NCBI GenBank assembly: GCA_964645485.1
Contig: CAZXZO010000002.1
Coordinates: forward strand, 62,478-126,477
Source: an uncultured Candidatus Poseidoniales archaeon
GTDB lineage: Archaea; Thermoplasmatota; Poseidoniia; Poseidoniales; Thalassarchaeaceae
Length of the DNA: 64,000 nt
Direction of reading: 5' to 3'
Part shown: piece by piece, positions 205 through 63,520 of the stretch
Position numbering within the stretch: the first letter of the stretch is position 1
Layout of the letters: the number at the start of each line of letters is the position of its first letter
Notes under the pieces: generated by a model
Told to the model about the DNA's origin: nothing
What the model saw: the letters and a program-made list of their open reading frames with translations, nothing else
Databases searched by the model: none
Translations under genes and position numbers: made by a program

Positions 205-2814
205 TTGAAGAAGCAGGTCGTTGGTGGAAGCGATCATTCACTTGCTGAATTACGTCATGAAATCACTGGTACAGATTCACCATCTTTGGAGAGAGCCGGC
301 CAGATTACTAAGAATTTGACTAACGAAGAAGGTCTTCGCCGTAGCCTTGGAAGAGAACGCCGTCTTAGGTTGAAAGACCAAGCAGAAAGGCTCTCCGCTG
401 CTAAGGGCTCAATGGGCCGTGCTCTCCAGATGGAACACCAATCTATTCTCAAGAATCTTGAGTCAGAAATGCGGAGTGAGATGGAATCAGAACTTTCGCG
501 TCTAGAGAAAGAAACACTTGGTCGGGAAGAAGAGATATTACGCGAAGAATTGGATATGAGGCTTGAGCGTGAAGAGATATCACTTCGAGAGCAACTAGAG
601 GTTGAACGGGAACGCCGCCTAAGTGCAAGCCGTGAACAACTTCACTCACAACTTTCCAGTGATATGAACAAAGAGTTTGACCGTCGTCGCGCATTTTTAC
701 AGGAGAAAATGGAAATTGAGGCAACCCAAGCACTCCAGGAACAGTTGTCGAGTCTAGAATCAGAATTGAAAGAAGAGATGGAAGTTCAATTAAAGTCTGA
801 AGAGACACGCCAAGCAGAAATCATTGAAGCTGAGCAACATTCACGTCTTTCAGAAAGGGAAATACAACTCCGGGATGGAATTCGCCGTCGCCTTGAGGGG
901 CAATTACGCAGTCGTCTGCGCGCTCGCGAGGCTCGCCTCAGAAGCGAGTATGAACATCGCGCCCATAGAATGGAGGAAGAGATTGCAAAAGACCTCCAAG
1001 ACGAACTAGAGCAACGCCTTACATCGGAAACCGAACAACTCGAAGAGCGAATGCAACAAGATTTGGAGTTAGCAGTTGCGCGTAAACGCGATGAAGTGCG
1101 AGCATCCATTCTGAATGAACTTCAAACCCAGTATGGTGAACGAATCGCAGAACGGAAACAGCGTCTCCGTGAGCGTTATGACTTAACTTTCAGTCAGTCA
1201 ATTGATGAGATTGAACAAGCTCTAAACATCGAATTGGAAGATGTCCTTCAAGATCGAATGGAGGGTGAATTTGAAACTTACCGCCGTTCACGAGAATCTG
1301 AAATATCTAGTCGCCTATCTCGATTCCGCCATGATAGAGAAATTGAACTCCGACAACAACTAACTTCATCCTTTGAAGGTAGGAAGCAAGAATGGATTGA
1401 CCAATTAGAACAAGAATACCGCTCTAAGGAGTCAGCAGTACAACGACAAATTATGGCTGAGATTGATGCTCGAGTTCGTAACGAAAAGATATCTCAAGAG
1501 ACCTCACTTGACCTGTTAAAGCAGGAGACCTCAATGGAACTTGAGGTAGAGATGGAATCAAGACTACGAGAGTTTAGATCTAGAAAGGAAACAGAAGTAA
1601 CCGATCAATTAGAACGCCAACTTTCCAAGCGTGAAGAAATTATGCGTAACAAAGCCCTCATTGAAGTTCGCCGCCGTGAATCCGAAATACGTGCAGAAAT
1701 TGAAGCACAACTTGCAGTAAAGAGAGCAGAAATTCGTGAGCGTCTTGCAACACTTGAGCAACGCTCAGAAGAATTCAAACAAGTTGCAGAAGAAAAGATT
1801 CGAACACAACTTGAGCGTAATCTTGTTTCAGAGGAAGATTTGGAAGACCAAGTTCGCTTGCAGCAGTTAGAGGATGAGGCTGAAAACCTTGAGAATCAAG
1901 ATACAGTATTGGACCGCCGCCAGAGATGGATGGGTGCATTGGAAGGTGCCCAGGGCCAGATGCCTGAGACTGCTGTTCGCCAAGGTGGCCTTGTTGGAGG
2001 GGGCAGATTAGGACAACCAAAGTCATCAACTCTTGGTGGGCCTGCAAAGGCCTCGGCACCCCCCGCTCTTGGAGCAGGTGCTGGAGGGCGATTAGCACCT
2101 TCACGAGCACCTATTGGACAGGCTTCGGCAGCAACAGCGGCCACGCCAGCAACAAAAATTCCCAAACCATCAATCGGTTCAACTATGGCTGAGCGCTTAG
2201 CACCAGTCAGAGCGCCTATCAGGGTTGAAGGTGAAGCACCTAAAGAAACCCGTTCTCTAAGTGATATTGCAGAAGAAGTAGGACTACCTGCGCTTGAAAC
2301 AAAAGAACCCGAAGAACCTTCAGGCATTGACTCACCAAAAGAGACAATCGAAGATGATTGGGATAAGGATGAAGAATTAGAAATCAGTTCAGTAATTTCA
2401 GAATTAGCTACTCTAGAAGAAATAGATGCTCAATCTCAGTCACAACCTGAAGAACCAACCCCTGTATCAAGAGGTCCGCCAGGTGGAGGCAAATTGATTC
2501 GCGATGACGTGAATACAGAGGGAAGTGTAGAGACAAAACCAGTGCGCGGTCCACCCGGGGGCGGAAAACTAGTTCGAGAAAGGCCGGAACCTTCTGAGAG
2601 GAGTCCTCCAATTGATACCACAGATATTCCAGCAGAGATATTAAAGCCAGTTCGAAAGCCAGTATTACAACCAAAGAAAATTGAAACTGCTAACATTATT
2701 TCAATGACAGACCCCGTCAAAGTACTAGTTCCTGAAGCGGCTCCAAAAGTTGCAAAACTAACTCCGGTGACCACCACTTTAACTCCAATACAAAGTTCAG
2801 AAGAAGAAGAATGA
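205..2814 (+). CDS. Large E/R/L/Q-rich coiled-coil protein with a Pro/Gly/Ala-rich disordered C-terminal third; function unknown
   Basis: 869-codon ORF with a TTG start at 205. About 590 aa show heptad-like charged sequence. The C-terminal part has a duplicated RGPPGGGKL(I/V)R unit and ends SSEEEE. Confidence 0.8.
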   Translation: MKKQVVGGSDHSLAELRHEITGTDSPSLERAGQITKNLTNEEGLRRSLGRERRLRLKDQAERLSAAKGSMGRALQMEHQSILKNLESEMRSEMESELSRLEKETLGREEEILREELDMRLEREEISLREQLEVERERRLSASREQLHSQLSSDMNKEFDRRRAFLQEKMEIEATQALQEQLSSLESELKEEMEVQLKSEETRQAEIIEAEQHSRLSEREIQLRDGIRRRLEGQLRSRLRAREARLRSEYEHRAHRMEEEIAKDLQDELEQRLTSETEQLEERMQQDLELAVARKRDEVRASILNELQTQYGERIAERKQRLRERYDLTFSQSIDEIEQALNIELEDVLQDRMEGEFETYRRSRESEISSRLSRFRHDREIELRQQLTSSFEGRKQEWIDQLEQEYRSKESAVQRQIMAEIDARVRNEKISQETSLDLLKQETSMELEVEMESRLREFRSRKETEVTDQLERQLSKREEIMRNKALIEVRRRESEIRAEIEAQLAVKRAEIRERLATLEQRSEEFKQVAEEKIRTQLERNLVSEEDLEDQVRLQQLEDEAENLENQDTVLDRRQRWMGALEGAQGQMPETAVRQGGLVGGGRLGQPKSSTLGGPAKASAPPALGAGAGGRLAPSRAPIGQASAATAATPATKIPKPSIGSTMAERLAPVRAPIRVEGEAPKETRSLSDIAEEVGLPALETKEPEEPSGIDSPKETIEDDWDKDEELEISSVISELATLEEIDAQSQSQPEEPTPVSRGPPGGGKLIRDDVNTEGSVETKPVRGPPGGGKLVRERPEPSERSPPIDTTDIPAEILKPVRKPVLQPKKIETANIISMTDPVKVLVPEAAPKVAKLTPVTTTLTPIQSSEEEE

Positions 2815-2900
2815 GTGCAAAATAATTGAGTTGACCGTAGGTCATTTACTCAAAATCAACCTACCACCGCATTCAAAGGTAGAATGCTCCTCAACGGAGC

Positions 2901-9961: not shown

Positions 9962-10420
9962 TCATTCTTCGTAAATCCAATCTTCTGCTGACCGGGTCCA
10001 ATCTACTAATCCCTCAGCGAACCAAAGTCCTAATTCAAATTCTGCAGTTTCTTCAGCGTCACTGCCATGGATTAAGTTGTGTCCTATATCCATCGCCCAA
10101 TCCCCACGAATTGTTCCCGGGGCAGCATCACGCCCATTTGTTGGACCGATGATATTTCGAGCCACCTTGATGGCTTCTACTCCACTCCAAGCCATGGCTA
10201 CAACAGGTCCGGATGTGATGAATTTTAGTAGTCCAGGGTAGAATGGTCTTTCTGAGTGGACGGCATAGTGACTCGCCGCTAATTCATGAGAGGGTGTCAA
10301 CTGCTTCAAACCCACCAAACGGAGCCCCTTTTCCTCAAAACGGGCAATAATCTTGCCAACCAATCCTCTCTGAACCCCATCGGGTTTTACCATCACAAAC
10401 GTTGTCTGCATATAACTCAC
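9962..10420 (-). CDS. ndk: Nucleoside diphosphate kinase
   Basis: [16 protein letters not shown]...NLIHGSD. Confidence 0.95.
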
Positions 10421-12618: not shown

Positions 12619-13257
12619 TCATTCTTCTTCTTCGAAGTCTTCTTCGTTTATTTCGCCTGAATTCAACTTTAGATATGATGGGAGTCCCATCAATTTGTCA
12701 AACGTCCGTGAAAGAATGAGCTCATCCAACCGGGGGCTTGTGCGTGCTAGGAATTGAACTGGTATGTTGATTACACCGTTTTCTAATCTGTATCTTCTTC
12801 TTAGATTTCCTCTAGCCTTTACTTGTACGCCGCGATATGTGCGCTTAATTTTGACTAGCCCAATGACTACGCCGAGGTCTTCACCCTGGGTGTCAAGAAC
12901 TGCTCTGTCAAGTAGTTCATCGGGGGCGTATAATTTTTCATTGATACGAACTGTGTTTCGCCATCTGCGTTGCAATTCCCTCATTGACTTCGTAAGTTTG
13001 ATACTCCCATCCGACTGAATGCTGTGAAGGAGTTCTTTTGAAAGTGGAGCGAACTCAGCAGGCTTGCGCATAAATTCGTCCGCAACACCTGGCTCAACCT
13101 GTAATCTGAAAGATTGGACTCTTTCTTCATTGGGGTGATATCTCTCCCCCACTATTACTCCAACTCGCGTTTGTTTCACGTAAACTTCTCGTTGTAACAA
13201 TTCCTGTATTCTAAATGATTCATCTGTCATATTTTTTCCCTCTCTATTACCGTGCAT
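12619..13257 (-). CDS. Hypothetical protein with two PRC-barrel-like segments, ends EEEE
   Basis: ELLQREVYVKQTRVGVIVGE and ELLDRAVLDTQGEDLGVVIGLV resemble PRC-barrel starts. The true start may be the second Met (MTDESF). Confidence 0.55.
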   Translation of the reverse strand: MHGNREGKNMTDESFRIQELLQREVYVKQTRVGVIVGERYHPNEERVQSFRLQVEPGVADEFMRKPAEFAPLSKELLHSIQSDGSIKLTKSMRELQRRWRNTVRINEKLYAPDELLDRAVLDTQGEDLGVVIGLVKIKRTYRGVQVKARGNLRRRYRLENGVINIPVQFLARTSPRLDELILSRTFDKLMGLPSYLKLNSGEINEEDFEEEE

Positions 13258-16059: not shown

Positions 16060-17073
16060 TCATTGTTCTGCGAAGAGACTTGCACCTAACAGAGGTAAGA
16101 GTAAGGAAGCATCCCCCTCCACAACAATTTGAGGCGCTTCCGCACGAATTTTCCCCCAACTAATTGCTTCTTTGAGTCTTGCACCCGATAATGAACCATC
16201 ATGTTCTGAGGCGGTAGTGATTTGCACTGCAGAATCCAGTCCTCCTCGATATTGATTCCACCAAATAACATGGTGTTTTGAGATTCCTCCTCCAACCATC
16301 AAGGCATGGGAGGAGTCTGTGGTCCAAATTAAGTCAGAGAGAATTTGTTGATCTTCTAACAAATCAAGATTGAAGTCCCTTGCTTTTTGTCGATGCATGA
16401 ACAATTGAGCTCCAATAGAACCATCATAAATACCTGGTATAATAATCGGAATTCGATGCTTGGCGGCCCAATGAAGTAAACTTGATTCATCATCAATCCG
16501 ATCCCCCAAAGCCCAGCATAATTCTACACTCCCGAATCCTTGCCACGGGTTTTCGGGATTTTCTGAGCGCCTCTCATCGTCAATTTCTTGTAATATTGGC
16601 ATTACGATTTTCTCAATGATATCTCCATAACTTGCATTTGGAACAATCACGTTTCCTAATCGATTCAAGCCCTGTTCACCTAGTTCGATATCATCTAACT
16701 CGAATGCTCCATGATAATAATCACTGAAACTTCTGGCAATGTCATGGTCAAGAGTTCCACAAGTTGTGACAACAACATTGAATCTTTTTCTTTTCAATGC
16801 TTCAACGAAGAATCCACGTGTTCCGGTAGCACAAAGGCAGGCAGGAAAAGAAAGCCAGTTCAATTGGCTATTCCCTTCTTCACTTGATGACTCATCAAAT
16901 TGCTGAAACATATCTGCTAGAATGTCGCGGGCTAGGGCTAATTTAGTTGCTGTAAAACCACCAGCAGTTGCCATTTGGTCCAACAGTTTGGAGGCATTTT
17001 CAGTGGTAGAGAAATCATAATCCACCACTGGCAAATCAAAGTCTTCTTGGTTTACCATGACATCACCCGACAA
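16060..17073 (-). CDS. dys: Deoxyhypusine synthase
   Basis: GGGISKHHVIWWN...ITTASEHDGSLSGARLKEAISWGKI. Confidence 0.93.
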   Translation of the reverse strand: MSGDVMVNQEDFDLPVVDYDFSTTENASKLLDQMATAGGFTATKLALARDILADMFQQFDESSSEEGNSQLNWLSFPACLCATGTRGFFVEALKRKRFNVVVTTCGTLDHDIARSFSDYYHGAFELDDIELGEQGLNRLGNVIVPNASYGDIIEKIVMPILQEIDDERRSENPENPWQGFGSVELCWALGDRIDDESSLLHWAAKHRIPIIIPGIYDGSIGAQLFMHRQKARDFNLDLLEDQQILSDLIWTTDSSHALMVGGGISKHHVIWWNQYRGGLDSAVQITTASEHDGSLSGARLKEAISWGKIRAEAPQIVVEGDASLLLPLLGASLFAEQ

Positions 17074-17097: not shown

Positions 17098-17988
17098 TTA
17101 TTCACAAATCCTCTCAATTTCCTTTATCACTTCATTTGCGACATCAATTCCAGTTGCTCTTTCTATTCCCTCAAGCCCAGGTGATGAATTTACTTCCATC
17201 AACAATGGCCCTCGGCTAGACTCCAATAAGTCGACTCCACCGAATTGAATGTTTAGGGATTTACAAGCGTCAATACATATTCTCTCAATATCTGGTTCAA
17301 GTTCTAATTGGTCACCGGTTCCACCTCGGTGAATATTGCTACGGAAGTCATCACCCTTTCCCGTTCTCCTCATTGCGGCTACTACTTTATCGCCAACAAC
17401 AATTGCTCTGATATCAGTTCCCTTGGATTCTGCGATATACTCTTGAACAATTATTGGTTGATGTAATCTAGCAAGCACATCAATAACTGATTCTGCACTT
17501 GCAACAGTATCACAGCGCATCACTCCAATTCCTTGAGTCCCTTCTAATAATTTCAGAACTACAGGTGGACCGCCCACTGTTTTGATACACGGGTGTAAAT
17601 CGGCTGCTCCTCTTGCATATGCTGTTCTAGGAATGGGTAATTCCACTGCGGCAAAACGCTGTAGAGCACGTAATTTATCCCTACTCGCCCCAATTCCATT
17701 ACTTGGGTTGAGGACTGGGACGCCTGCGGCCTGAAATTGTCGGAGAATGGTTAATCCATGGCGGGTGATTGAAGCCCCAATTCTAGGCACAATACAATCC
17801 ATTGGTTGCACAATTTTGTCACCATTATAGAGAACAGTTGCCCCATCGGGAGATAAATCAATTGTACATCTTGTTGGGTTGAGATAACTAACTCCATGCC
17901 CCTCTCTTCTAGCAGCAGCAGCCAATCGAGTTGTGCTGTAGAGTTCAGGCCCTTGGGTCATGATGACAATCTCAAGTCTCCGCCCCAT
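17098..17988 (-). CDS. rimK: RimK-type ATP-grasp alpha-L-glutamate ligase
   Basis: VVLKLLEGTQGIGV, IVQEYI, DFRSNIHRGG and GVDLLESSRGPLLMEVNSSPGLEGIE align closely with my recollection of E. coli RimK. Confidence 0.9.
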   Translation of the reverse strand: MGRRLEIVIMTQGPELYSTTRLAAAARREGHGVSYLNPTRCTIDLSPDGATVLYNGDKIVQPMDCIVPRIGASITRHGLTILRQFQAAGVPVLNPSNGIGASRDKLRALQRFAAVELPIPRTAYARGAADLHPCIKTVGGPPVVLKLLEGTQGIGVMRCDTVASAESVIDVLARLHQPIIVQEYIAESKGTDIRAIVVGDKVVAAMRRTGKGDDFRSNIHRGGTGDQLELEPDIERICIDACKSLNIQFGGVDLLESSRGPLLMEVNSSPGLEGIERATGIDVANEVIKEIERICE

Positions 17989-28219: not shown

Positions 28220-28978
28220 GTGATATTCATGGAAGAAGGCACAATTGTCTACATTGATTACGACCTGTTTGAGGTTGATTCCGGAAAACTAATTGAGACC
28301 ACTCGTGAGGAGACTGCAAAGTCAAACGACGTTCATGAAGAGTCACGAACTTATGAGCCTCTGTGCACCACTATTGGTGCTGGAGCGTTGATTCCTGGTT
28401 TTGAAGAAAGCCTAGAAGAAGCAGAAGTTGAAACTGACTACGATATTGAGATTTCACCAGACAAAGCATACGGAGAGCGTGACCCGGGTGCTGTTGAAAT
28501 GTTGGGCCCACAACAATTGGCTCGCCAAGTAAGGGACCCTGACAATTTACAAGTTGGAGGACCAGTCGAAATCGGTGGCCGAAAAGGTACCTTAGTCATG
28601 TTCCGTGCTGGTCGGGCACGAATTGATTTCAATCACGAATTAGCGGGTAAATCACTGCGTTATAATTACCGAATCACAAAGGTTGTTGAAGAGAAGGACG
28701 AGATGGTAATGACTCTTCTAAAGATGTCAACAGGTTCTGATGACTTTGAAGTAGAATTTGACGGCGATGATGTATCTATCACAATTCCAGAGTTCCTTGG
28801 ATATGACCAATCATGGGGTATGGCAAAGTTTCAACTCATTCGTTCACTACGTGACACTGTTGGTGCCAAGACAATCGTGTTTAGAGATGTACACCAATTC
28901 AGAGAGGCTGCAGAAGAAGAGGAAGAAGAACACGTCCACGATGAAAACTGTGACCACGACCATGACGAAGAAGAGTGA
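28220..28978 (+). CDS. FKBP-type peptidyl-prolyl isomerase (SlyD/long archaeal FKBP-like) with His/Asp/Cys-rich tail
   Basis: DFNHELAGKSLRYNYRI. Tail EEEEEHVHDENCDHDHDEEE. Confidence 0.85.
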   Translation: MIFMEEGTIVYIDYDLFEVDSGKLIETTREETAKSNDVHEESRTYEPLCTTIGAGALIPGFEESLEEAEVETDYDIEISPDKAYGERDPGAVEMLGPQQLARQVRDPDNLQVGGPVEIGGRKGTLVMFRAGRARIDFNHELAGKSLRYNYRITKVVEEKDEMVMTLLKMSTGSDDFEVEFDGDDVSITIPEFLGYDQSWGMAKFQLIRSLRDTVGAKTIVFRDVHQFREAAEEEEEEHVHDENCDHDHDEEE

Positions 28979-40495: not shown

Positions 40496-41065
40496 TTATT
40501 CTTCAAACGAATCAATCAACTCTTGCAATTGACGGTGTAACTCATCAACATCTCCATCATTTTGAATTACAACATCGGCCATTGCAGCCGTAGCGATTAA
40601 TGCTTGGCCACTTTCATCATGAGCCACCAATTCAGATTCTTCTTGGCCAACAAATTGTTCAAAATTTTCAGCATCACCAGTTCGTCCACGTGAAACTAAA
40701 CGCTCCCATCGCACTTCTAAGGAGGTTCGAACTTCGATCATGATGAAATCCTTACGCTTTCTGAGGGCTTCAACCTCAGCGGGTGTCCTGATGCTGTCAA
40801 TAGCATGATTACCACCTTCGCCAATTCGGTCAAGCAACATTTCTGCTAAAATTCCAGGGCCACCCATAGCACGGAGTTTTCTTCCCCCATCAATTAGATT
40901 GTCACGATTTATTTCACGGCCATTAGAGCGTAGCCAATGGCGAATAGAGTCAGAACAAGAATTTACGCCGAACCCTCGTTGTTTGAACCATTCAATCACA
41001 GTTGTTTTTCCAGACGCATTACGTCCAGTTAACCCTACCAACATTGAAGCCACCGAGTATGTCAC
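40496..41065 (-). CDS. P-loop nucleotide kinase (CoaE/adenylate-kinase-like)
   Basis: VGLTGRNASGKTT Walker A. 189 aa. Substrate not determinable. Confidence 0.65.
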   Translation of the reverse strand: MTYSVASMLVGLTGRNASGKTTVIEWFKQRGFGVNSCSDSIRHWLRSNGREINRDNLIDGGRKLRAMGGPGILAEMLLDRIGEGGNHAIDSIRTPAEVEALRKRKDFIMIEVRTSLEVRWERLVSRGRTGDAENFEQFVGQEESELVAHDESGQALIATAAMADVVIQNDGDVDELHRQLQELIDSFEE

Positions 41066-44187: not shown

Positions 44188-47100
44188 TCAATCGTCATCT
44201 TCTTCATCATATTCGTCATCAAATTCATCATCATCGTCAAACATTAGGTCGTCATCAAACAATTCAGAACGATTCGTGAGAGCTCCCTGCATGCTAACAT
44301 ATGCAACAATAGGTAGAACAATCATAGCGATAATAATTCCAATTACAGCGAGTAAGTTTTGGCGAGCGCCTTCAACCCACCCCATTCCAAATGCGTAGTC
44401 AACAGACACTCCTACACTAGCACTATTATCGGATTCGTCAACTTCCGAAATTTCGTTTTCTGTGTCAACGATTACGATTACTCTGTCAACCCCTTTCTCA
44501 GCAACCCATGTCGCAGAAATAGGAATTGCTTCATCAGCGATACCGTTCAGTTTCTGTGTGGCGAATGGTTTTTCTGAATCACCAGAATAGAATCCAACTA
44601 CAAACCCGGAATTAGTTGAACCACCGAGATTAGAAATCCATGCTGTAACCTCCACTTTGTCACCATTAGCAACAATTTCTTTATCTGCCGAAATTCGTTC
44701 TACAGTCAATTGTGCTCCTAGTGCTCCAAACCGAATCCATTGTAGTTCGTGGTCACCATTTAGGTCAACAGGTTCTCTCACTGGGTCACTCTTCGAGTTT
44801 CCTTCAGTGGCAAGTGGGTTGCCAGCACTGTCCCAACCTTCAATCCAGAATCCGACTTCATAATCCTGAAGTGGTGGATTCATTCCGTCTCCAATCAAGT
44901 CCACAGTACCTGTCCAAGTGATTGCTTGTCCTTCTTGAAGCATCCCCAAAAGGGAGGACCCTGAGGAAATTTGGCGCTGATTCTCATCTCGCATTAACCA
45001 GTGTACCCACTGCGGGCTTCCTGAAAGGTCTGCATCTTCCCAGCCAATGAATTCTACTGGTACTTCAGTTAGAGCAGTCTTGTTAGAAATGTCAATGACA
45101 TCAATCGGTGTTAGCCTTTCAAGAACTCTAGGTGGAGCGTGATCGACCTTAACTTGCAAAGTTGTTGAAACGGTGTCGCGAGTCATATCCTCACCTCTGC
45201 CAGGAATATTTCTCACTCCTGCAAGGAAGGTTCTAGTTTCACTAGAAGCAAGTGTGGTGGCGGCCCCAAGAGGGACTTCTAAACTAAATCCACCATCGTC
45301 AGTTAGGCTTCCATCGGACCAGTATTGTACTCCATCGAAGACTTCAACTGTAATTCCCAAATTTTTCGGTGCGGGTACATCGCTACCTTCGTAAACCACT
45401 CTACCAGACCAGCGCAAACGGTCGTTAGGCACAACCCGGCTTCCATCAAACACGGGGCCAACTCTTGGCTCTTGTACATCTTCTACGGTGTAAGTTTGAG
45501 CGTCTAGTACCAAGTCATTCTCAATTCTGAAAGTGTGCTCTGTGAAGATTTCCCTACGTGGTTCAGTACTGCCTAATTGAGTGAATTCTAAGGCGATATC
45601 TGACAGATCAGCATCAGGCCAGTCCCATGAAAATGCGAAAGCAAATGTGACCTTCACCCAAGGTAAACCTGTTTCGTTAGTAGTAACAATTCCTCCGCAT
45701 GATTCATCCAGTATATTATTACAAGCTGGTGAAATTTCAAGGTAATCATCGTCAGTCCAAAATGTAGCATTATTTCCACTGAAAGATAATCTCTGTTGGT
45801 CTCTCTCTGGATCAGGTCCTTCAAAGTCAAAAATTAAAGAAATATCAGTGAAGTCAATCAAGCCGTTGGCATCAACAAGGCCGAGTGTGATATATTGAGT
45901 GGTTCCCGCAAATGCTCTTTCACCATCTTCGTGACCTGCCCAATGTAATCCGGTGAATACCGAATCCATGTCTTTTCTTGTTCTGTAGGTTACCAAGTCA
46001 TAATCAAAACCGGGGCCATCTGAACGGAGTAGCGCATTGCCTGCAACATCAGTTCCGGTGACGTAATAAGAGACTCTTGCCATGTTTGGATTATTTGAAT
46101 CATCAATATATGCGAAGAACAATTTGTCAATGTCATCAGTCATATTTGTCATGGTTTGATTGACGTATTCGCCTGCATCAGCATTGCCATTACGGTTAGA
46201 GTCATGTTCTGCTTCTATCCAGTAGTGAAGAGTCAATTCTTCAGGTGCGCCAATTTCATCCTGAATTCTTATGCGCACCGCTTGGTCTTCTTGCCCTGCC
46301 TCGTAGGCATTGTCAAGAGGAGTTGCTTCTATCAGAGTTGGACTTGTGGCATCAACTCGGATGGTTCGTTGCCATGATTGGTTGGTTGAGAGGACTTTGA
46401 GAGGGTCTCTTGGGTTGTCAATCACGACCTCGTAGAATACACCGTCTGGGCGGTCAATTGTATCTACAGGAACTGGAATAAAGAACTCTCCATATTGGTT
46501 TGACCGGTCTTTGGCTTGTACGAAATCACCTTCTGTAGTTCGCTTGACGACGGCTACATCGAAGGTAGAGTCTAGCGGTGCATCTTGAGTTCCGTCATAC
46601 CAAATTGCTCCTTGGAAGTACAGCGTTTCACCCGCTTTAATCCACTCATAATTTGGGACATCATCATGGTGCACAGCACCGTCATTGTCTCTGACTGCCA
46701 ACCATCCAAGTCCATAGGATTGGTTCACTCGGATTCCTGGAGCGTTACTTGCCCGTGATGATAGAGACATTGGTGAGAGGCCTTGGTCATCAGTGCAACT
46801 GACTCTGAATCCAACATTGTCCTGTTCAATGAAATTAGAGGTGACGCGGAAAGCCCAATGAATTTCTAAAATACCATTACTGTTATTGGTCCACGTTGCA
46901 GAAGCATCTGGAATTATCCAATCTTCGGGGTCGTCATCAATAAGGGTTCCATCACTGTTCCAAGTTAAGGAAGGAGTTTCACTTGCAGGGTATGCTAAGA
47001 AATCAAGAGTTGCAGTAGATATGCCTCCGGCATCTTCACCAATTACGTGTCTAGTTACAACTTCATAGGTGTCAATTGTTTCATGCAACACCATAGTTTC

Positions 47101-49245
47101 ATCCCAACTAATGTCAAGATTGACTGTTTGCATGACGTATGTAATTGAAAATGAATTTATCACCACTTTACCAGAAGACGACGAAAGAATCTGGATTGGG
47201 ATCAGTTCTGTTCCAGAGCCTGTATCTGGAATAGCATCATTTAGGGCATTAACAATTGAACTTCCTGATGTGCCAGATGCAGTTACCGTGGAGAGTAAGG
47301 CGTTGGTATGAGTCCACTCAGCACTGCCATCACTGCCGATGTCTAATTTCACATTTTGGGGAGCATTGGAGTAAAGAGCGACTTGGAAGTCATCTACAAT
47401 TGGACTGTATGCATTGGCGCCACCAGCGTAAAAGTAGAAACAGAGGGTGAGATATGACAGAGTAGTCGGGAAGTTTACCGTTTGTCCCGGTGTATTCAAA
47501 GTCGTAGATGTCCCCGATGTGCAACTGCTAGATGTAGTCCACCTGACTGATAATGAACTACCACCTAATTCTGTTGAGTTCCACCATACTTGGGCTGCTA
47601 CAGGCCCATTTGAGCTAGAACCAAAATATGGGGTTCGCATCCACATTAATCCTGAAGGTGCATAAGAGCCGGTGTAACCTAGGGCAATCGTATCTATTAA
47701 AGCAGAAACGTTGCTGTTTGTGCTGTTGAGATATGCTCTCCATCCAAGTTGGGTTCCTGAATTTGTGAAAGTTACTCTTGTTCCGATTTGTGCTTGCTTC
47801 CAAGTCACTCCACCATCGTTTGTGACTTCATATTCTACCGATGTTCCTGTTGGCTTCCAGGAAATTGCTGCAGTTAATGTCAAGTCCGGAGTTGTTCTAG
47901 TTGCAGTGATTGCGGATGAAGTTATTATTGTAGAAGTGGTGCTAGGTGTTCCCATTGAAGAAACAGTTGACCTTCCATTGGTGAAGATTTTGTGAGAACT
48001 TCCACTTGGGCATTGGGTGTTGTAATAACAACTCCATGCAAGAGTCCCATCCGCTGTGCCTTCCAGTCCGAAGTGAGCATGATTTGGGAACAAAATATCT
48101 CCTTGGTGTTCAGGCCATGCCCCACCTCGGAGGAAAACCGAGTGGTAGTTTTTGGCCTTACAGTTGTTATTGCTTGAGTATGTACAGTAAACATTCACAG
48201 TTACTCTGTCGCCAGCAACATCGAGTCCTGCTGGTTGACCTTGACCACTTGGAATCATCATCAACAATTGTGTTGAAAGTGCTTGAGCGGGGCTTGAGCG
48301 GTTGACATTCCAAAGGTAGTAATTGTAATTTCCACTCACATAGCGGGATGCTACAACATACATTTCATTGTCAACTGGGTCAAAAGCAACACCTCCAATG
48401 TTGTATGATGAACCATACCATGCCTGATTACATGACCAACTGGTCCCTGCAGAATTGACTGTCCACTTAGCGATGTAGTTGTAATTCCAACTTGTTGTCC
48501 AAATCGTACCATTTCCATCACTGGTGATGTCAGAAAGATATGCCATGGTAGAGGTCGTACAACTGTTGAATGAAAGGCTCACAGTGCCTATTTGGGCGCC
48601 AGTAGTTGTGTTATAACTCCTAATTGATGGGGTGCTGTAAAGACTGGTGCTTGACCATTGTGCGACAAAAGTTTTGCTTCCTTGGTAAGCTACAGGGCCA
48701 GCATAATTCCAAGAGCCACCAGAATACGCTGAATAACCCTGAGTAGTTGCTCCCACTAAATCAGAATCAGCCAAGCCAATAGATCCACCTGTTGTGTTGT
48801 GGACTGCATTTGGTGCACTGGAAATATCACTCGTTCTCGTTAAAGCCCAACTCGCTTCACTTTGCATTTCTCTTAGGGATGTTTGATCGTTACCAACATC
48901 AATAGTAGTTCGATAATCATAAGAGAAGTATGGGACATTCATAGGCCCATCTGTTGTTGAAGGACCGCCAAAGTGTGTATTGGTGCTTGCATTAGCCCAA
49001 GTAGTTGTTGAAGGTTCTCCAGTGATAGAGAAACTTGCTGATGTTACTTCTGCTCCATAAGGCATGTTTACTCCAGCAGTTCCACCATTCCCTTGACCGG
49101 CAAAGGTGTGGGAAAAACTGGTAGTGCCATCAGCAAATTGGGTTTCAGTAGTTGCCGCGATTGCAAATGATAGCGTTGTAGACAACAGCATTAATCCGGC
49201 CAAGAAAAACGAAGTGAATTTGATTTGGTTGTTGCATCTAAACAT
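44188..49245 (-). CDS. Giant (about 1,685 aa) secreted surface protein with C-terminal TM anchor and poly-acidic tail
   Basis: Signal peptide MFRCNNQIKFTSFFLAGLMLLSTTLSFAIAA (start moved to the ATG at 49245). S/T/N/G/W-rich with many N-x-S/T sequons. TM helix LLAVIGIIIAMIVLPIVAYV. Tail DDDEFDDEYDEEDDD. Confidence 0.85.
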   Translation of the reverse strand: MFRCNNQIKFTSFFLAGLMLLSTTLSFAIAATTETQFADGTTSFSHTFAGQGNGGTAGVNMPYGAEVTSASFSITGEPSTTTWANASTNTHFGGPSTTDGPMNVPYFSYDYRTTIDVGNDQTSLREMQSEASWALTRTSDISSAPNAVHNTTGGSIGLADSDLVGATTQGYSAYSGGSWNYAGPVAYQGSKTFVAQWSSTSLYSTPSIRSYNTTTGAQIGTVSLSFNSCTTSTMAYLSDITSDGNGTIWTTSWNYNYIAKWTVNSAGTSWSCNQAWYGSSYNIGGVAFDPVDNEMYVVASRYVSGNYNYYLWNVNRSSPAQALSTQLLMMIPSGQGQPAGLDVAGDRVTVNVYCTYSSNNNCKAKNYHSVFLRGGAWPEHQGDILFPNHAHFGLEGTADGTLAWSCYYNTQCPSGSSHKIFTNGRSTVSSMGTPSTTSTIITSSAITATRTTPDLTLTAAISWKPTGTSVEYEVTNDGGVTWKQAQIGTRVTFTNSGTQLGWRAYLNSTNSNVSALIDTIALGYTGSYAPSGLMWMRTPYFGSSSNGPVAAQVWWNSTELGGSSLSVRWTTSSSCTSGTSTTLNTPGQTVNFPTTLSYLTLCFYFYAGGANAYSPIVDDFQVALYSNAPQNVKLDIGSDGSAEWTHTNALLSTVTASGTSGSSIVNALNDAIPDTGSGTELIPIQILSSSSGKVVINSFSITYVMQTVNLDISWDETMVLHETIDTYEVVTRHVIGEDAGGISTATLDFLAYPASETPSLTWNSDGTLIDDDPEDWIIPDASATWTNNSNGILEIHWAFRVTSNFIEQDNVGFRVSCTDDQGLSPMSLSSRASNAPGIRVNQSYGLGWLAVRDNDGAVHHDDVPNYEWIKAGETLYFQGAIWYDGTQDAPLDSTFDVAVVKRTTEGDFVQAKDRSNQYGEFFIPVPVDTIDRPDGVFYEVVIDNPRDPLKVLSTNQSWQRTIRVDATSPTLIEATPLDNAYEAGQEDQAVRIRIQDEIGAPEELTLHYWIEAEHDSNRNGNADAGEYVNQTMTNMTDDIDKLFFAYIDDSNNPNMARVSYYVTGTDVAGNALLRSDGPGFDYDLVTYRTRKDMDSVFTGLHWAGHEDGERAFAGTTQYITLGLVDANGLIDFTDISLIFDFEGPDPERDQQRLSFSGNNATFWTDDDYLEISPACNNILDESCGGIVTTNETGLPWVKVTFAFAFSWDWPDADLSDIALEFTQLGSTEPRREIFTEHTFRIENDLVLDAQTYTVEDVQEPRVGPVFDGSRVVPNDRLRWSGRVVYEGSDVPAPKNLGITVEVFDGVQYWSDGSLTDDGGFSLEVPLGAATTLASSETRTFLAGVRNIPGRGEDMTRDTVSTTLQVKVDHAPPRVLERLTPIDVIDISNKTALTEVPVEFIGWEDADLSGSPQWVHWLMRDENQRQISSGSSLLGMLQEGQAITWTGTVDLIGDGMNPPLQDYEVGFWIEGWDSAGNPLATEGNSKSDPVREPVDLNGDHELQWIRFGALGAQLTVERISADKEIVANGDKVEVTAWISNLGGSTNSGFVVGFYSGDSEKPFATQKLNGIADEAIPISATWVAEKGVDRVIVIVDTENEISEVDESDNSASVGVSVDYAFGMGWVEGARQNLLAVIGIIIAMIVLPIVAYVSMQGALTNRSELFDDDLMFDDDDEFDDEYDEEDDD

Positions 49246-49358
49246 AGGCGGTCCCCTAGGGACCGTTAGGGGTACCATTTCAACCCTTTGCACTTAGAAC
49301 AAATCCAATTACACCGAAACTGTATCAGTCAGGAGGCCTACGAGCGCATGGGATTGAG

Positions 49359-50201
49359 ATGGCGGCAGGCAAGAAGCGGAAAAATTCGAAGCGAGGTTTG
49401 AAGGCATATTTTGGAGAAATTTGGGAGGATAAAAGAGACCATCATTTGACAATTTTGGGAATGCTAACAGTTCTTACTTTTGCCATGATTTTATGGGCAA
49501 TAGCATTCTTCTCAATGTTTGCTTCAAACGCACAACAGGAAGCCAATGGATGGGCAGATTTGACCGCAGCAACTTGGGTTGGAGTCTTACTTGCATTTGT
49601 TCTTCTATTGTTTGTTATTCCGGAGTTTTTCCATTATCTCGGAGTACGTAATTCACTTGTGGATATTCTTGAGACAGACTCTCGGGCAGAGTTACAAAAG
49701 AACAGCAAAGAATTAGATGAAGGGGCCAAACTACTCGCCGGCGCGTGGCCTGCTAGAATTGCTGCCAAAAAGGTGGAGTTAGGTTTACGTCGCGATATGC
49801 CGGATGGCATGTCATTATCCGACACCGGTAAAACCTCATTAATTGGCACTTGGATGAATACTAAATATTCCAGATTAGCCCAGAGATTCCCCGATTCGAA
49901 CCTACTCAAAGACCCTGGAATAAATAAAATTATTATTTTCAGTTCACTGACAGGATTACTCCTATTTGTCTATAATGCCTTAATTGGACTAGCGCGTGAG
50001 TCGATAACTAGTCCCCGTAATATGACAGTTGATTTTACTTCCATCATTACAGGTGGTACATACAATGCAACTTGGGCTCCACACTTTGATTTGGTTGGTG
50101 TACTAATGATTGCAATGTTTGCAACAATTCTTTTCATGACTAGTCCAGCATCCAGTGAAGAGGATGAATCAGATAGTGACTCTATTCAAGAAGAAGAATG
50201 A
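49359..50201 (+). CDS. Membrane protein of unknown function, ends IQEEE
   Basis: Basic N-terminus, about 4 hydrophobic helices, acidic Ser-rich tail. Confidence 0.7.
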   Translation: MAAGKKRKNSKRGLKAYFGEIWEDKRDHHLTILGMLTVLTFAMILWAIAFFSMFASNAQQEANGWADLTAATWVGVLLAFVLLLFVIPEFFHYLGVRNSLVDILETDSRAELQKNSKELDEGAKLLAGAWPARIAAKKVELGLRRDMPDGMSLSDTGKTSLIGTWMNTKYSRLAQRFPDSNLLKDPGINKIIIFSSLTGLLLFVYNALIGLARESITSPRNMTVDFTSIITGGTYNATWAPHFDLVGVLMIAMFATILFMTSPASSEEDESDSDSIQEEE

Positions 50202-50213: not shown

Positions 50214-51158
50214 TTGATGGCCACACCATTAGGCTGGATTCGCGAAGCATTGCTTGCAATCGGATTAATTTCGCTTTTAGTAATTGGTTTGTGGGCAACC
50301 ACAGGTTCTCTTCCGCCAATGGTAGTGGTTGAATCATCATCTATGATGCATAATACTGAGGGAGAAGTTGGGGCAATTGACCCAGGTGACCTGGTTCTTG
50401 TGATGTCAACATCTCGCCGAACGAAGATTGTCAGCATGGCAGAAGCAATGGAAGTCGGTGGTGAATGGGAGGGATGGGAATATCATGGCAAACCCGGAGA
50501 TGTGATTATCTACAAGAAAAATGGTGGAATTGACACGCCCGTCATTCATCGTGTAATTCTTGAAGCAGTAGCAAATAGTACAATCTCACCAACTGATCGT
50601 TCACTTGGACTCTGTCCGCAGGGAAGTAGTTGGGACCCGATATCAATTGATGCTGATGGGCAGGCAGGAACATGTGTTCTCACATGGGATGCTCCGGGAA
50701 CTACAGTATTGAATCAAGCCTCAATAAACTGGTCCTTTGACAATGTGGAATGCCCTTCAAACCCCCATGGTTTGATGGTTCAGGAGTGGGACCCAGGGCA
50801 CGCAGGATACCTTACTTTGGGGGACAATAACCGTTGTGATGTGGACCAAGGATCTCAAGCCTATCCCTTGGCAGGTGGACTTACTGATGAGAACGGAAAT
50901 CGAGTTACTGCTGTACGTTCAGACTGGGTAGTTGGGGTTGCGGGTGCTGAACTACCATGGCTTGGTACAATCAAACTAGCAGCCTCATCAAATTCGGCCC
51001 AAGTAACAGGTCATAGTTGGAGAATGCTGGGAGCAACAGCGGTCATTCTTTTACTTGGGACATTTGTCGTTGAGCAGGCTACTGAAAAGTTGTTGATTGG
51101 TTCGCCTGAAATCTCTCAGGCGAATAAAGAGCAGGAAAAAAATTCCGAAGAAGAGTAA
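50214..51158 (+). CDS. Sec11/archaeal-type signal peptidase I (S26B) with inserted Cys-containing domain and C-terminal TM
   Basis: VVESSSMMH (Ser box), GDVIIYKK...PVIHRV (His box), and LTLGDNNRCDVD (GDNN box). Confidence 0.8.
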   Translation: MMATPLGWIREALLAIGLISLLVIGLWATTGSLPPMVVVESSSMMHNTEGEVGAIDPGDLVLVMSTSRRTKIVSMAEAMEVGGEWEGWEYHGKPGDVIIYKKNGGIDTPVIHRVILEAVANSTISPTDRSLGLCPQGSSWDPISIDADGQAGTCVLTWDAPGTTVLNQASINWSFDNVECPSNPHGLMVQEWDPGHAGYLTLGDNNRCDVDQGSQAYPLAGGLTDENGNRVTAVRSDWVVGVAGAELPWLGTIKLAASSNSAQVTGHSWRMLGATAVILLLGTFVVEQATEKLLIGSPEISQANKEQEKNSEEE

Positions 51159-55844: not shown

Positions 55845-57992
55845 ATGGCAGGAACAGCAGTTTACATCACTTGGGTAACTGCCTCTTTACTCGGCGGGAT
55901 TCTATTGATGCCGATTTTCCGTCCTGCTGGAAAACGAGTTACATTGGCTGGATTTGTTGATATGTTTCGCCGCTACTGGCTACATATTGCATTAGTTTTC
56001 AGCATCTATGTTTGGAAAGATTTGCTTGATGGCTTAGACCGTATTTTGATGGCTAATACCCACCTCAATATGACGCCATTTGTTTATGCTATTGAGGGCG
56101 ATTTAGTTTTGTTGGTCCAACAGACATTCCTCAATGAGATGTTGACTTTTGTCTTGACTCATTATTATGTTGCAGGTTATATGCTATTGACATATACGGC
56201 CTCACTCTATTTCACATATTTTGATGACCGCTGGATGGCAGATAGAGTCTTGTTATCGATGTTCTTTGTCTATGCGCTAGCAGTGCCCTTCTACCTATTC
56301 TTCAATGTTAGAGTGACGGGAGACCATATTCCTGAAATGGAAACTTTGGCCTATCACCTTACCCCGGAGATCCAAACTTGGTTCACGAGGATTGACCCGT
56401 TCACAAATGGCATGCCTAGTCTTCACATTGGTATTCCGTTCACTGTATGGTTGGGACTTCATCGTTGGGACCACGATGAAAGATGGAAGAAATATCGGCA
56501 ATTTGTCGGTGTCTATATCCTAGTCACAGCATTTACAATCATCTATCTTGGAATCCACTGGTTTGTTGACATCATTGGTGGGATAATTGTATCCTTCTTT
56601 GCGGTTAACTTAGCAGATAAGTATCATGCTTGGTTGTGGTATCGGTTTGATGAGAGAACTTTCAATGCCAGAGTTGCATGGTTGTTAGCAGATTTCAACA
56701 ATCCAAAACGAGTTCTATCTAGTTGGATTTCTAGATCATTAAATTGGTTGAAAACACCATCAACAGCACAAACTGGAACAGTCGTGATGTTGCTGCTAGC
56801 AACAACTGGAGGAGTGCTGTTGTATGATGCAACTCACCAAGATTTCCCAGCCGAGGGAGTAACTCATCCAGAAGCGGCTGCAGGTGCTGACGGCTGGTTA
56901 GTTGCACTTGATGCAAACGAAAATGGTAACTTAAGTGCGGTCATAATTGATATTGAAAACGATAGAACATATCACGATAGCCTCAATTTGAACGAGGATG
57001 GTAATCAATCACAATGGGGTGTTGTAAACGCGTCAACAGAAGTGTTGATTTCAGAAAATCATGCAATCGTTTGGCAAGGTTACAGGATAATTACTCTGAA
57101 GTTCTCAAATCCAGGCTCTCACGCCTATGGTAGGACGACAGGTCCACTGTACACCGACCTTGCTCTTCTCGATGACTCAGAAGATGAGCGAGCCAAGTTA
57201 TTCGCGATTGATGATGGTGTAGTAATTGACTTGCAAAGCACAGAATATAATGAGGTATTCACACCAATTCCTGATGATGATGTAATTCTCATTGATGGGG
57301 GTGGGAATAGTTTAGCTTGGGTTACCCAGAGTTCACCAATGACTGCCAATATCCTCTCACTAGATGGTGTGCAGAGTAGTCTATCTGTTGAAGTCAATGT
57401 TACTGTTGATTCAGCAAAAGATGAACAAGTGCTAGCACTCACTGGTACCAACGTTGACTACGTGAACGCGAGTATAACTGGAATTGCATTTGACAAAAAT
57501 CACATAGTAGCCGAGGTGAATTTGTCAGCAGTTAGCCGTTTAGTTTTGGTGAATCTTGATACGGGAGAGCAGCGAATTATCGGTGACCCTCTTTTCCCTG
57601 TAGCAAACCCTTCAATTGGCCATGGTGTGGTTGCTTGGCAACATAAGTGGGGGCTCAATTCAATAGACCCAAATAATGCTGAGTTAGACTGGGATGTGAA
57701 GTATCACATTATCTTGGAAAATCATTCCTATCAACTTCACACTGAGGATGAGTTGAACCAGACTGAGCCACAGGTCATGGAAGGATACATTGCTTGGCTA
57801 CAAGATAGTGGTGGTGAAGAACCACCAGAGGTGATAATTTACAGCCTTGAGGAAACATTTGAGCCGTATTCATCGCGAACTTTGCAAATAGCGATAATTG
57901 CTCTAATCCCTCTGTTATCTCTATGGATGATTCAAAAACAAAGAGAAAATTTGGATTCACTAGACGAAGATTCACCCGACGAAGAAGAATGA
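55845..57992 (+). CDS. PAP2-superfamily membrane domain fused to a beta-propeller-like ectodomain, terminal TM and -DEEE tail
   Basis: GMPSLHIG and GIHWFVDIIGG (PAP2 C2/C3-like). Recurrent (I/V)(A/V)W(Q/L) blade-like motifs in residues ~340-680. Confidence 0.72.
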   Translation: MAGTAVYITWVTASLLGGILLMPIFRPAGKRVTLAGFVDMFRRYWLHIALVFSIYVWKDLLDGLDRILMANTHLNMTPFVYAIEGDLVLLVQQTFLNEMLTFVLTHYYVAGYMLLTYTASLYFTYFDDRWMADRVLLSMFFVYALAVPFYLFFNVRVTGDHIPEMETLAYHLTPEIQTWFTRIDPFTNGMPSLHIGIPFTVWLGLHRWDHDERWKKYRQFVGVYILVTAFTIIYLGIHWFVDIIGGIIVSFFAVNLADKYHAWLWYRFDERTFNARVAWLLADFNNPKRVLSSWISRSLNWLKTPSTAQTGTVVMLLLATTGGVLLYDATHQDFPAEGVTHPEAAAGADGWLVALDANENGNLSAVIIDIENDRTYHDSLNLNEDGNQSQWGVVNASTEVLISENHAIVWQGYRIITLKFSNPGSHAYGRTTGPLYTDLALLDDSEDERAKLFAIDDGVVIDLQSTEYNEVFTPIPDDDVILIDGGGNSLAWVTQSSPMTANILSLDGVQSSLSVEVNVTVDSAKDEQVLALTGTNVDYVNASITGIAFDKNHIVAEVNLSAVSRLVLVNLDTGEQRIIGDPLFPVANPSIGHGVVAWQHKWGLNSIDPNNAELDWDVKYHIILENHSYQLHTEDELNQTEPQVMEGYIAWLQDSGGEEPPEVIIYSLEETFEPYSSRTLQIAIIALIPLLSLWMIQKQRENLDSLDEDSPDEEE

Positions 57993-62732: not shown

Positions 62733-62749
62733 ATTGAGGAGGGTAAATC

Positions 62750-63520
62750 TTGTCGGATAGCGATATACCATTAGTTGAGGCAAAAGACCTTGGAAAGGCA
62801 TTTGGCGATTTTGTCGCTCTCCATCCATTGAATGTCAAGGTGGCAGCGGGAGAATTTTTCGGAGTTTTCGGCCCCAATGGAGCAGGTAAATCCACTTTCA
62901 TCAAGTTGCTCACAGGTCAACTTAGACCAACTATGGGTGGTGCTAGAGTTTTGGGAATTAATGTTAGAGCAGACCCAAGAATGGTGAAGGCTAATGTTGG
63001 AATTGTTCCTGAATCAGAAAGCCCACCATCATTTCTCACAGCCGCCGAATATCTTGAATTCGTGGCTCGCCTGCGAAACTTAGATGAGATTCCAGAAAAA
63101 GTTACCCATTGGCTAGATTGGTTTGGTATTCTAGACAAGCGAAACACCTTGTGCAAAGATTTGTCAAAAGGACAACGCCAAAAAGTAATGCTCGCTGGTG
63201 CATTTATCCATAACCCCAAGTTACTTTTCCTAGACGAACCATTCGTCAACCTCGACCCAATTTATCAGCGAAAGTGCCGTAATCTTTTGATGGAAATAGT
63301 TGCTGACGGGGGCACAATTTTTCTCTGCACTCATATTCTTGAAGTCGCTGAAAGAGTGTGTACAAGAGTGGCTGTTATCGACCGAGGACATGTGCTTGCA
63401 GCGGGAAGCATTGATGAATTGAAAGACAATGATGATGAGACTCTTGAGGATGTTTTCATCAGACTTGTGGGGTCATCATTTGATGAAATCGAGGCGATGG
63501 AAGGGAGTGAGGAGGAGTGA
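62750..63520 (+). CDS. ABC transporter ATP-binding protein (ABC-2 type)
   Basis: GPNGAGKST, LSKGQRQK, and LLFLDEP. Ends GSEEE. Confidence 0.9.
   Translation: MSDSDIPLVEAKDLGKAFGDFVALHPLNVKVAAGEFFGVFGPNGAGKSTFIKLLTGQLRPTMGGARVLGINVRADPRMVKANVGIVPESESPPSFLTAAEYLEFVARLRNLDEIPEKVTHWLDWFGILDKRNTLCKDLSKGQRQKVMLAGAFIHNPKLLFLDEPFVNLDPIYQRKCRNLLMEIVADGGTIFLCTHILEVAERVCTRVAVIDRGHVLAAGSIDELKDNDDETLEDVFIRLVGSSFDEIEAMEGSEEE

Follow-up and report, generated by a model that had tools for sequence, protein, structure and literature searches.

A C-terminal Glu-Glu-Glu motif on unrelated proteins of Poseidoniales archaea, a candidate acceptor for RimK-family glutamate ligases

Introduction

Proteins of archaea of the order Poseidoniales end in three consecutive glutamates (EEE-COOH) far more often than chance allows, and these ends may serve as acceptors for a RimK-family glutamate ligase. 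The ends were noticed in a 64,000-nucleotide stretch of DNA from an uncultured Candidatus Poseidoniales archaeon (phylum Thermoplasmatota, Marine Group IIb), referred to here as the window (GenBank contig CAZXZO010000002.1, positions 62,478 to 126,477), for which an initial annotation had reported seven unrelated EEE-ended proteins and proposed a shared C-terminal recognition element. Few uncultured microbes of the surface ocean are as abundant as Marine Group II archaea, whose cell biology is almost uncharted.

We analyzed the whole assembly around the window (G000; 1.94 Mb, 55 contigs, 82% complete), in which the window is C2:62478-126477, and put a complete genome from another family of Poseidoniales (G020; 2.06 Mb, 51% guanine-plus-cytosine (GC) content) through an identical pipeline. 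Genes of G000 were called with a codon log-odds model trained on long open reading frames (ORFs), and overlaps were resolved greedily. This procedure yielded 1,423 genes at 89% coding density, with 1,409 usable proteins. Errors in start sites are irrelevant to the results, because the C-terminus is set by the stop codon alone.

EEE termini across the genome

An EEE C-terminus closes 45 of the 1,409 proteins of G000 (~3%) and 46 of 1,474 in G020. This excess is far beyond chance: only 0.46 such ends are expected in G000 under an independent-residue model, and 0.59 from the internal rate of EEE. Shuffling of the last 10, 20 or 30 residues, a comparison proposed in the initial annotation, gave expectations of 3.1, 1.7 and 1.6 against the 45 found (Poisson P 1e-35 to 1e-48). 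General acidity, which the initial annotation had doubted as a cause, does not explain the excess, since carriers of the motif do not exceed other proteins in acidity and local permutation predicts under four such ends. EEE is by far the commonest C-terminal tripeptide in G000, the second, SEE, occurring 12 times. Counted by offset from the C-terminus, EEE is found 45 times at offset 0, 8 times at offset 1 and about once at each further offset, and the N-termini of G000 proteins show no comparable peak.

Terminal runs of one, two, three and four Glu number 187, 36, 39 and 6 in G000 and 185, 22, 44 and 2 in G020; the preferred run length is exactly three Glu, a quantum. Position -4 of the tails is at background, with S or G most frequent, and the 20 residues preceding the tails are enriched in S, E, D and P and depleted in aromatics, Cys and Arg. 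A single terminal E is itself common (19% of all proteins in G000 and 17% in G020, vs a background of 6.9%) and is conserved ~2-fold above expectation between the two genomes. Terminal D is slightly raised, and neither DDD nor mixed acidic ends are comparably enriched. For bacteria, a general C-terminal bias has been reported (PMC7246954), and it is towards Lys and Arg rather than Glu. Searches of a paper library found no description of the EEE motif, nor of RimK in Poseidoniales. The initial annotation likewise knew of no described archaeal motif of this kind, and the C-terminal EEE tag of Poseidoniales is apparently undescribed so far.

Carriers in the window

All seven ORF ends reported for the window read exactly as the initial annotation gave them:

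205..2814, plus strand: 869-residue protein ending SSEEEE, with Glu codons at 2800-2811 and a TGA stop at 2812-2814; no Pfam family.
12619..13257, minus strand: 212-residue protein ending DFEEEE; weak PRC-barrel match (Pfam, E 0.014).
28220..28978, plus strand: FKBP-type peptidyl-prolyl isomerase, SlyD-like with an IF domain, ending HDEEE.
49359..50201, plus strand: 280-residue multi-pass membrane protein with a short acidic tail after the last transmembrane (TM) helix, ending IQEEE.
50214..51158, plus strand: 314-residue membrane protein ending NSEEE; no Pfam family.
55845..57992, plus strand: 715-residue PAP2-superfamily membrane protein with its tail after the last TM helix, ending PDEEE.
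62750..63520, plus strand: 256-residue ABC-transporter ATPase ending GSEEE (GAGGAGGAG-TGA), its stop overlapping the GTG start of the next gene.

Some family labels of the initial annotation are unconfirmed, among them that of signal peptidase for 49359..50201: Pfam returned nothing significant for this protein, for 205..2814 or for 50214..51158, and for 12619..13257 no more than the weak PRC match. A nucleotide string had also been said to recur at the gene ends, and four of the seven carriers do end GAAGAAGAA-TGA, the remaining ones using GAG and/or TAA. The other acidic ends listed there, EEDDD on a giant protein (44188..49293, minus strand) and EE on 9962..10420 and 40496..41065 (both minus strand), were read likewise. 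Acidic ends are nonetheless commoner in the window than had been stated, 12 of its 47 proteins ending in E and 3 of 47 in D.

Seven carriers in the window compare with ~1.5 expected at the genome rate. This is a local excess only; genome-wide clustering was considered and discarded, as adjacent carrier pairs number 2 in G000 and 1 in G020 against ~1.4 expected, which is not significant. The giant protein (1,701 residues, with a CARDB domain) closes on a long Asp/Glu/Phe-rich stretch (...DDDDEFDDEYDEEDDD), which is acidic but not the EEE motif. An M50 (site-2-type) membrane metalloprotease (51168-52655, minus strand) lies directly after the adjacent carriers 49359..50201 and 50214..51158 and is convergent with them.

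Conservation of the tails

Between G000 and G020 there are 988 reciprocal best hits, and both members end in EEE in 13 pairs against 0.8 expected, a 16-fold excess vs 2-5-fold for other terminal residues. EEE stands on one side only in 15 pairs (G000) and 16 pairs (G020). The BLAST alignment stops short of the tail in most of the 13 pairs, and lost tails are often replaced by SEE, SSEE, DSEE or EQE. For the carriers in the window, the G020 orthologue of 55845..57992 ends SMEEE, that of 12619..13257 has no tail, and that of 205..2814 ends NSEEEDEDA, so that the tail is not retained there. Elsewhere in G000, an EEE end is also found on two more ABC ATPases, each of them conserved in G020.

Whether orthologues keep the tail had been named in the initial annotation as a check on the motif, and it is kept while linkers vary, both in the 13 orthologue pairs and in wider sets of relatives. 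All 30 relatives of the FKBP 28220..28978, drawn from three families of Poseidoniales and reaching down to 40% identity, end in EEE, including some whose EEE follows 40 residues of a different, SAP-like extension. EEE is found in 24 of 29 complete orthologues of 50214..51158, again from three families, the rest ending ESEE, DSEE, KESE or EAS, and in 18 of 18 orthologues of 49359..50201 within the genus (47-87% identity), with variable linkers. In a large protein collection, 113 of 120 cluster representatives of ribosomal protein eL43 end in EEE, behind linkers that vary in length and sequence. Two eL43 representatives, P0052 and P0111, run 12-17 residues beyond EEE (TEEE-RLDNTQTDFGAQ; EEEGFRTTQFDNYQFLR), which looks like stop-codon loss, or a sequencing or gene-calling error. 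The SAP-like C-terminal extension (...LSVAELKERLKAAGLPVSGKKADLIARLSQEEE) was acquired by the FKBP of another family (loci L021-L027; A395/B532), with the EEE end kept. FKBPs of the sister order bear long Lys-rich tails in place of EEE.

The carriers, described in the initial annotation as unrelated in function, are indeed heterogeneous genome-wide. They include the chaperone FKBP, three ABC ATPases, GyrA, SdhA, the RNA enzymes SpoU (a methylase) and Tpt1, eL43, eS31, ScpB, RmuC, NfeD, a Na+/H+ exchanger, a CitMHS transporter, Frag1-like and PAP2 membrane proteins, a haem peroxidase and an FG-GAP/ASPIC protein, both with C-terminal anchors, and PKD/CARDB and InhA-like giants. The full-length 'animal haem peroxidase' homologue (G000:C1:77759-79669; E 7e-123) and the FG-GAP/ASPIC protein (C1:75329-77602) are encoded by adjacent, divergent genes, and in each a signal sequence and a C-terminal TM anchor accompany the EEE stub. 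A mild enrichment of membrane proteins among carriers in G000 (P = 0.003) is absent in G020 and was not used.

Among 30 carriers whose last TM helix lies within 50 residues of the end, K and R together number 53 in the 15 residues after the helix vs 19 before it. Because this excess follows the last helix, the positive-inside rule predicts that the tails are cytoplasmic, as had been suggested for the membrane proteins of the window; the soluble carriers are classic cytoplasmic proteins, and no secreted soluble protein was seen among the carriers. An archaeosortase/exosortase-type signal (e.g. PGF-CTERM), in which a signature motif precedes a TM helix and a basic cluster closes the protein, was rejected, the order of elements being reversed here (TM helix where there is one, basic juxtamembrane stretch, acidic EEE end); most carriers are soluble cytoplasmic proteins. 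Taken together, the permutation excess, the conservation among orthologues and the predicted cytoplasmic side support the proposal of a shared C-terminal recognition element.

Level of selection

In G000, 75% of the tail Glu codons are GAA vs 70% internally, and TGA, TAA and TAG follow the tails in genomic proportion. Since codon and stop usage of the tails match those of the genome, selection acts at the protein level. Carriers are like other genes in downstream-gene orientation, intergenic gap, translational coupling, +4 base, coding score and net charge. Ends built from other all-purine codons (KKK, GGG, RRR) are not enriched, and tails are conserved across genomes of 44% and 51% GC with differing stop usage. 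The EEE signal is an amino-acid motif, neither nucleotide context nor a by-product of acidity.

Phylogenetic extent

The trait was scanned across genomes by the nucleotide pattern GARGARGAR-TRA. Each of 63 sampled Poseidoniales genomes contains 19-67 instances, genomes of the sister order of the class contain 2-14, and most of the phylum Thermoplasmatota is at background. The EEE trait is order-wide in Poseidoniales and not strictly order-specific. Raised EEE-stop counts, a weaker version of the trait, recur in four genera of an unrelated Thermoplasmatota family (f29). In two f29 genomes encoding both a RimK and an AstE-like hydrolase (RimK+AstE+), 40 EEE-stop sites were inspected, and at least 34 are the ends of long, real-looking ORFs with high GC at third codon positions. 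EEE-ended genes of f29 include orthologues of the Poseidoniales carriers FKBP, SpoU and Tpt1, and five EEE-ended families are common to both inspected genomes. FKBP ends in EEE in all four f29 genera, vs none of 22 other complete outgroup FKBP orthologues. eL43 was discarded as a cross-lineage marker, as no outgroup eL43 ends in EEE, whether RimK is present or not.

A candidate ligase and hydrolase

Three G000 genes are candidates for tail modification:

17098..17988 of the window, minus strand: RimK-family alpha-L-glutamate ligase of 296 residues, a genus-level paralogue of the long RimK that occurs throughout the order; candidate for writing Glu tails.
G000:C2:26904-28109 (P0001): order-wide long RimK, with Rimk_N and RimK domains and an extra C-terminal domain.
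G000:C1:100568-102277: AstE/AspA-like (M14-like) zinc hydrolase with an AstE_AspA catalytic domain (PF24827 at 1.7e-35); candidate eraser.

The two RimKs of G000 share the Rimk_N plus RimK ATP-grasp architecture (PF18030 at 2.8e-27 and 9.2e-28; PF08443 at 2.3e-53 and 1.9e-54). The RimK in the window scores 240 bits against TIGR00768 (rimK_fam), above the cut-off of 143. Against the S6 ligase equivalog NF007764 the two proteins reach 286.5 (the one in the window) and 268.7 bits, below the cut-off of 331, and a search of G000, an assembly 82% complete, gave no ribosomal protein bS6 (PF01250, Ribosomal_S6). To our knowledge, archaea lack bS6. On the grounds of these scores and the missing bS6, we regard the G000 proteins as RimK-like enzymes, not S6 ligases. 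Identity as LysX was rejected at 135-139 bits, far below the LysX cut-off of 276 bits.

P0001 is 50% identical to Pseudomonas aeruginosa RimK (PDB 7QYR, E 1.7e-78; crystallised with poly-alpha-Glu). Of the residues that bind the terminal and the incoming Glu (Escherichia coli numbering), the counterparts of R64, R98 and R189 do not vary among 24 aligned sequences (alignment A1), and at least 90% of these keep E144; the arginine-belt positions R96 and R102 are His in P0001. Residues ~300-401 of P0001 make up an extra domain of ~100 residues, TrkA_C/RCK_C-like, for which Pfam gives a weak Castor_Poll_mid match (E 0.0019). Outgroup RimKs are ~300 residues long, without the TrkA_C-like domain. A strong RimK match was obtained in 62 of 63 Poseidoniales genomes and 1 of 8 sister-order genomes, and the paralogue in the window is restricted to its genus and one neighbouring genus (70-93% identity).

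In bacteria, RimK extends the acidic C-terminus of bS6, mutation of the penultimate acidic residue blocks this extension, and RimK enzymes are interchangeable between species (PMC4741518); the oligo-Glu tail lies loosely on the arginine belt of the enzyme (PMC10375531). Judged from sequence, all EEE carriers resemble a bS6-type acceptor in their terminal Glu, acidic penultimate residue and probably accessible tail.

The RimK gene in the window is part of a one-strand run (16060-20443, minus strand) with genes for UvrB (18035-20443) and deoxyhypusine synthase (16060-17073), at gaps of 46 and 24 nucleotides, and the order UvrB-RimK-deoxyhypusine synthase recurs in a related genus (L175). aIF5A was considered as a substrate of this RimK, encoded beside deoxyhypusine synthase, and rejected, as aIF5A does not end in Glu.

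The closest PDB relatives of the hydrolase are 3NA6 and 6TWM (~1e-22), and it reaches no NCBIfam equivalog (DoeB, 113 bits vs a cut-off of 403). All 63 Poseidoniales genomes encode the hydrolase, and none of 8 from the sister order does. Strong outgroup matches occur only in RimK-positive genomes, 14 in number; the hydrolase gene directly adjoins rimK in 13 outgroup pairs and lies on a different contig in the fourteenth genome (G057). In this arrangement, rimK and the astE-like gene form a conserved two-gene module, organized in the outgroups as a putative operon. That the hydrolase might act on protein Glu tails is suggested solely by its adjacency to rimK in these 13 pairs.

Hydrolases linked to RimK often have a run of Glu of their own that stops 1-4 residues short of the C-terminus (...AEEEDAEEEF, ...EQEEENES, ...VEEEEDGA, ...EEEEEEEGLR; G000:C1:100568-102277, G020:732390-733844 and outgroup loci L268-L274), which might be a masked or pseudo-substrate tail. 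Simple ORF picking, which performs poorly in high-GC loci, found no third gene or small substrate common across families beside the outgroup operons. In one outgroup of family f8, a 158-residue ORF ending ...PKKAPRKKDEEE (G046:C89:9783-9794; L272:4319-4795) shares its strand with the rimK-astE-like operon and precedes it by ~1 kb. A RimB-like protease (PF05618) was not found in G000. Other M14 peptidases of G000 were set aside as erasers: one is extracellular, as it has a signal peptide and a C-terminal anchor, and another runs off a contig end.

As an index of association we used the ratio of EEE-stop to EEE-TGG, the Trp codon serving as internal control; a reversed-pattern control was abandoned as a poor null in low-GC genomes. 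The pooled ratio, from counts transcribed by hand, is 5.1 in the 14 RimK+AstE+ outgroup genomes (5 families), 6.05 in 20 Poseidoniales and 1.8 in a systematic set of 56 RimK-negative genomes, with Mann-Whitney P of 9e-6 when genomes are compared and 0.002 when families are. The difference is not explained by GC content, as high-GC RimK-negative families score lowest. Across the phylum, presence of the rimK/astE-like pair tracks the EEE-stop excess.

Discussion

X-Glu-Glu-Glu-COOH is a genome-encoded, positively selected short linear motif that closes a flexible, usually Ser/Asp/Glu-rich cytoplasmic linker and is borne by about 45-60 unrelated proteins per Poseidoniales genome. On the explanation that we rate highest, the motif would be an acceptor for a RimK-family alpha-L-glutamate ligase, with the AstE/AspA-like hydrolase as its likely partner, a proposal that we credit and doubt in equal measure. 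The encoded EEE would act as a primer nominating the protein for C-terminal oligo- or polyglutamylation; RimK would bind the tails and add alpha-linked glutamates using ATP, as on bS6, and the M14-type zinc hydrolase would trim them. The analysis establishes the motif, its selection at the protein level, its conservation, its predicted cytoplasmic side, its lineage distribution and its co-occurrence with the gene pair; binding and extension by RimK, removal of Glu by the hydrolase and effects of tail length on the carriers are steps that we infer. Among the roles offered in the initial annotation, docking, turnover and enzymatic extension, it is the last that has gained concrete support, from this candidate gene pair. 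The combination of RimK with the Glu-trimming protease RimB in Pseudomonas is a precedent for a pair of writer and eraser (PMC11957791).

A wider version of this proposal is tentative, and we would sooner doubt than assert it: Poseidoniales, and to a lesser extent several other Thermoplasmatota, might maintain a genetically primed, reversible, proteome-wide C-terminal poly-alpha-glutamylation of ~50 proteins. Targets would include eL43, gyrase, SMC-ScpB, FKBP, tRNA enzymes, ABC ATPases and the cytoplasmic tails of transporters and surface proteins. RimK, with its TrkA_C-like domain as a sensor, would lengthen the tails according to the Glu, ATP or ion status of the cell, and the zinc hydrolase would shorten them.

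Several points weigh against glutamylation by this pair. The proposed link between RimK and the tails draws on co-occurrence and known enzymology. The tree gives no support to a specialised 'EEE-type' RimK clade, the RimKs of EEE-rich lineages not being monophyletic, and the rimK and hydrolase genes are unlinked in Poseidoniales. The association index is noisy, and a few RimK-negative families score high on it, at small numbers. Moreover, the gene pair is not sufficient for the trait, because one RimK+AstE+ genome of f29 (G307) has a low index and the marker proteins FKBP and eL43 lack EEE in families f23, f8 and f48. The closest characterised relatives of the hydrolase are AstE, DoeB and aspartoacylase, enzymes that hydrolyse small N-acyl amino acids. 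The RimK family also has members that attach Glu to cofactors (MptN, CofF), and mammalian RIMKLA/B and ASPA act on N-acetylaspartylglutamate and N-acetylaspartate. Since relatives of both enzymes make or cleave small molecules, the pair might make and break a small acidic peptide or serve small-molecule metabolism. Finally, bacterial RimK needs just one or two acidic terminal residues, and the strict count of three is therefore left unexplained by RimK.

That EEE-COOH instead docks another cytoplasmic reader, either a carboxylate-clamp chaperone or adaptor, or an unfoldase, protease or degron receptor acting in turnover or localisation, strikes us as unlikely, although it is well matched to the form of the motif: discrete length of three residues, strict terminal position, flexible linker and conservation over unrelated linkers are hallmarks of peptide recognition. 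RimK and the hydrolase would then be bystanders with a small-molecule or single-substrate role, which agrees with the activities of the nearest characterised hydrolase relatives and with the RimK+AstE+ lineages whose marker carriers lack EEE. However, the phylum-wide tie of the EEE-stop excess to the gene pair would have to be coincidental or indirect, and no candidate reader was identified, the sole PDZ protein found in the genome being the M50 membrane protease 51168-52655.

We consider it improbable that the tails are a passive physicochemical cap, with terminal Glu shielding proteins from carboxypeptidases or C-degron recognition, or aiding solubility, in a peptide-degrading organism and with no reader involved. 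Acidic C-termini are poor substrates of several carboxypeptidases and stabilise proteins in bacteria, and such a cap would account for the general enrichment of terminal E, the slight rise in D and the acidic replacements of lost tails. It predicts a monotonic decay of run lengths, whereas the observed distribution peaks at three with position -4 at background, and DDD or mixed acidic ends should be comparably enriched, which they are not. The same orthologues bear EEE in two distant lineages, and the sister order, of similar lifestyle, lacks the trait.

A nucleotide- or translation-level signal, in which the purine-rich GARGARGAR context tunes termination, read-through or downstream coupling, is scarcely credible and already largely refuted: several genes do have GAAGAAGAA-TGA in common and the tail of 62750..63520 overlaps the start of the next gene, but the GAA/GAG ratio and the use of the three stops in the tails are genomic, carriers resemble other genes in their downstream setting, +4 base and coding score, and neither the unenriched KKK, GGG and RRR ends nor conservation at both 44% and 51% GC fits such a signal.

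Some 3% of the proteome bears a conserved C-terminal code of three residues, a concrete layer of regulation that can be read from sequence, and annotators should take EEE ends in these lineages as a feature, not a gene-calling artefact. If the link to RimK is true, RimK glutamylation would become a proteome-wide system in Archaea, not a curiosity of one bacterial ribosomal protein, and the many archaeal RimK homologues without bS6 would gain a function. If the wider proposal of reversible poly-alpha-glutamylation is true, Archaea would have their first protein polyglutamylation network, and the tubulin 'glutamylation code' a counterpart in prokaryotes.

Comparison with known systems

The closest parallel is RimK-bS6 of E. 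coli and Pseudomonas. Both systems have an encoded acidic C-terminus on a flexible tail (E. coli bS6 ends ...GDSEE) and a Rimk_N plus ATP-grasp ligase, that of Poseidoniales being 50% identical to the P. aeruginosa enzyme and retaining the Glu-binding arginines. The best-conserved carriers include a ribosomal protein, eL43, and a hydrolase gene is coupled to rimK. Unlike the single substrate bS6, whose modification is established, Poseidoniales have ~50 unrelated carriers per genome in an archaeon without bS6, their tail is exactly three Glu, and their modification is a candidate one. Their partner enzyme is of AstE/AspA type and non-homologous to the retropepsin RimB, and their order-wide RimK has the extra TrkA_C-like C-terminal domain.

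Tubulin tails, with the ligases TTL/TTLL and the M14 hydrolases CCP, likewise combine Glu-rich C-terminal tails with an ATP-grasp-type ligase and an M14-like zinc hydrolase as possible writer and eraser, and in both cases tail charge could tune many interactions. However, the enzymes are those of eukaryotes, TTLLs attach gamma-linked branches to internal Glu, and the homology seen here with the Poseidoniales enzymes goes no further than superfamily level. The EEVD-COOH end of Hsp70/Hsp90, read by TPR clamps, and the -EE C-degron read by DCAF12 share with EEE an extreme C-terminal acidic peptide, a free carboxylate and a flexible linker. These systems are eukaryotic, EEE spans many protein families, and no counterpart of their readers was identified in Poseidoniales. 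A TPR-read EEVD motif as such was rejected, since the ends are X-EEE, with no terminal hydrophobic residue or Asp, and the carriers are not Hsp70/Hsp90. In the LysW-LysX/ArgX carrier system a RimK-family ligase also recognises the acidic C-terminal Glu of a protein; there, LysW is a single dedicated small carrier (ending EDWGE), and ligation is to the gamma-carboxyl.

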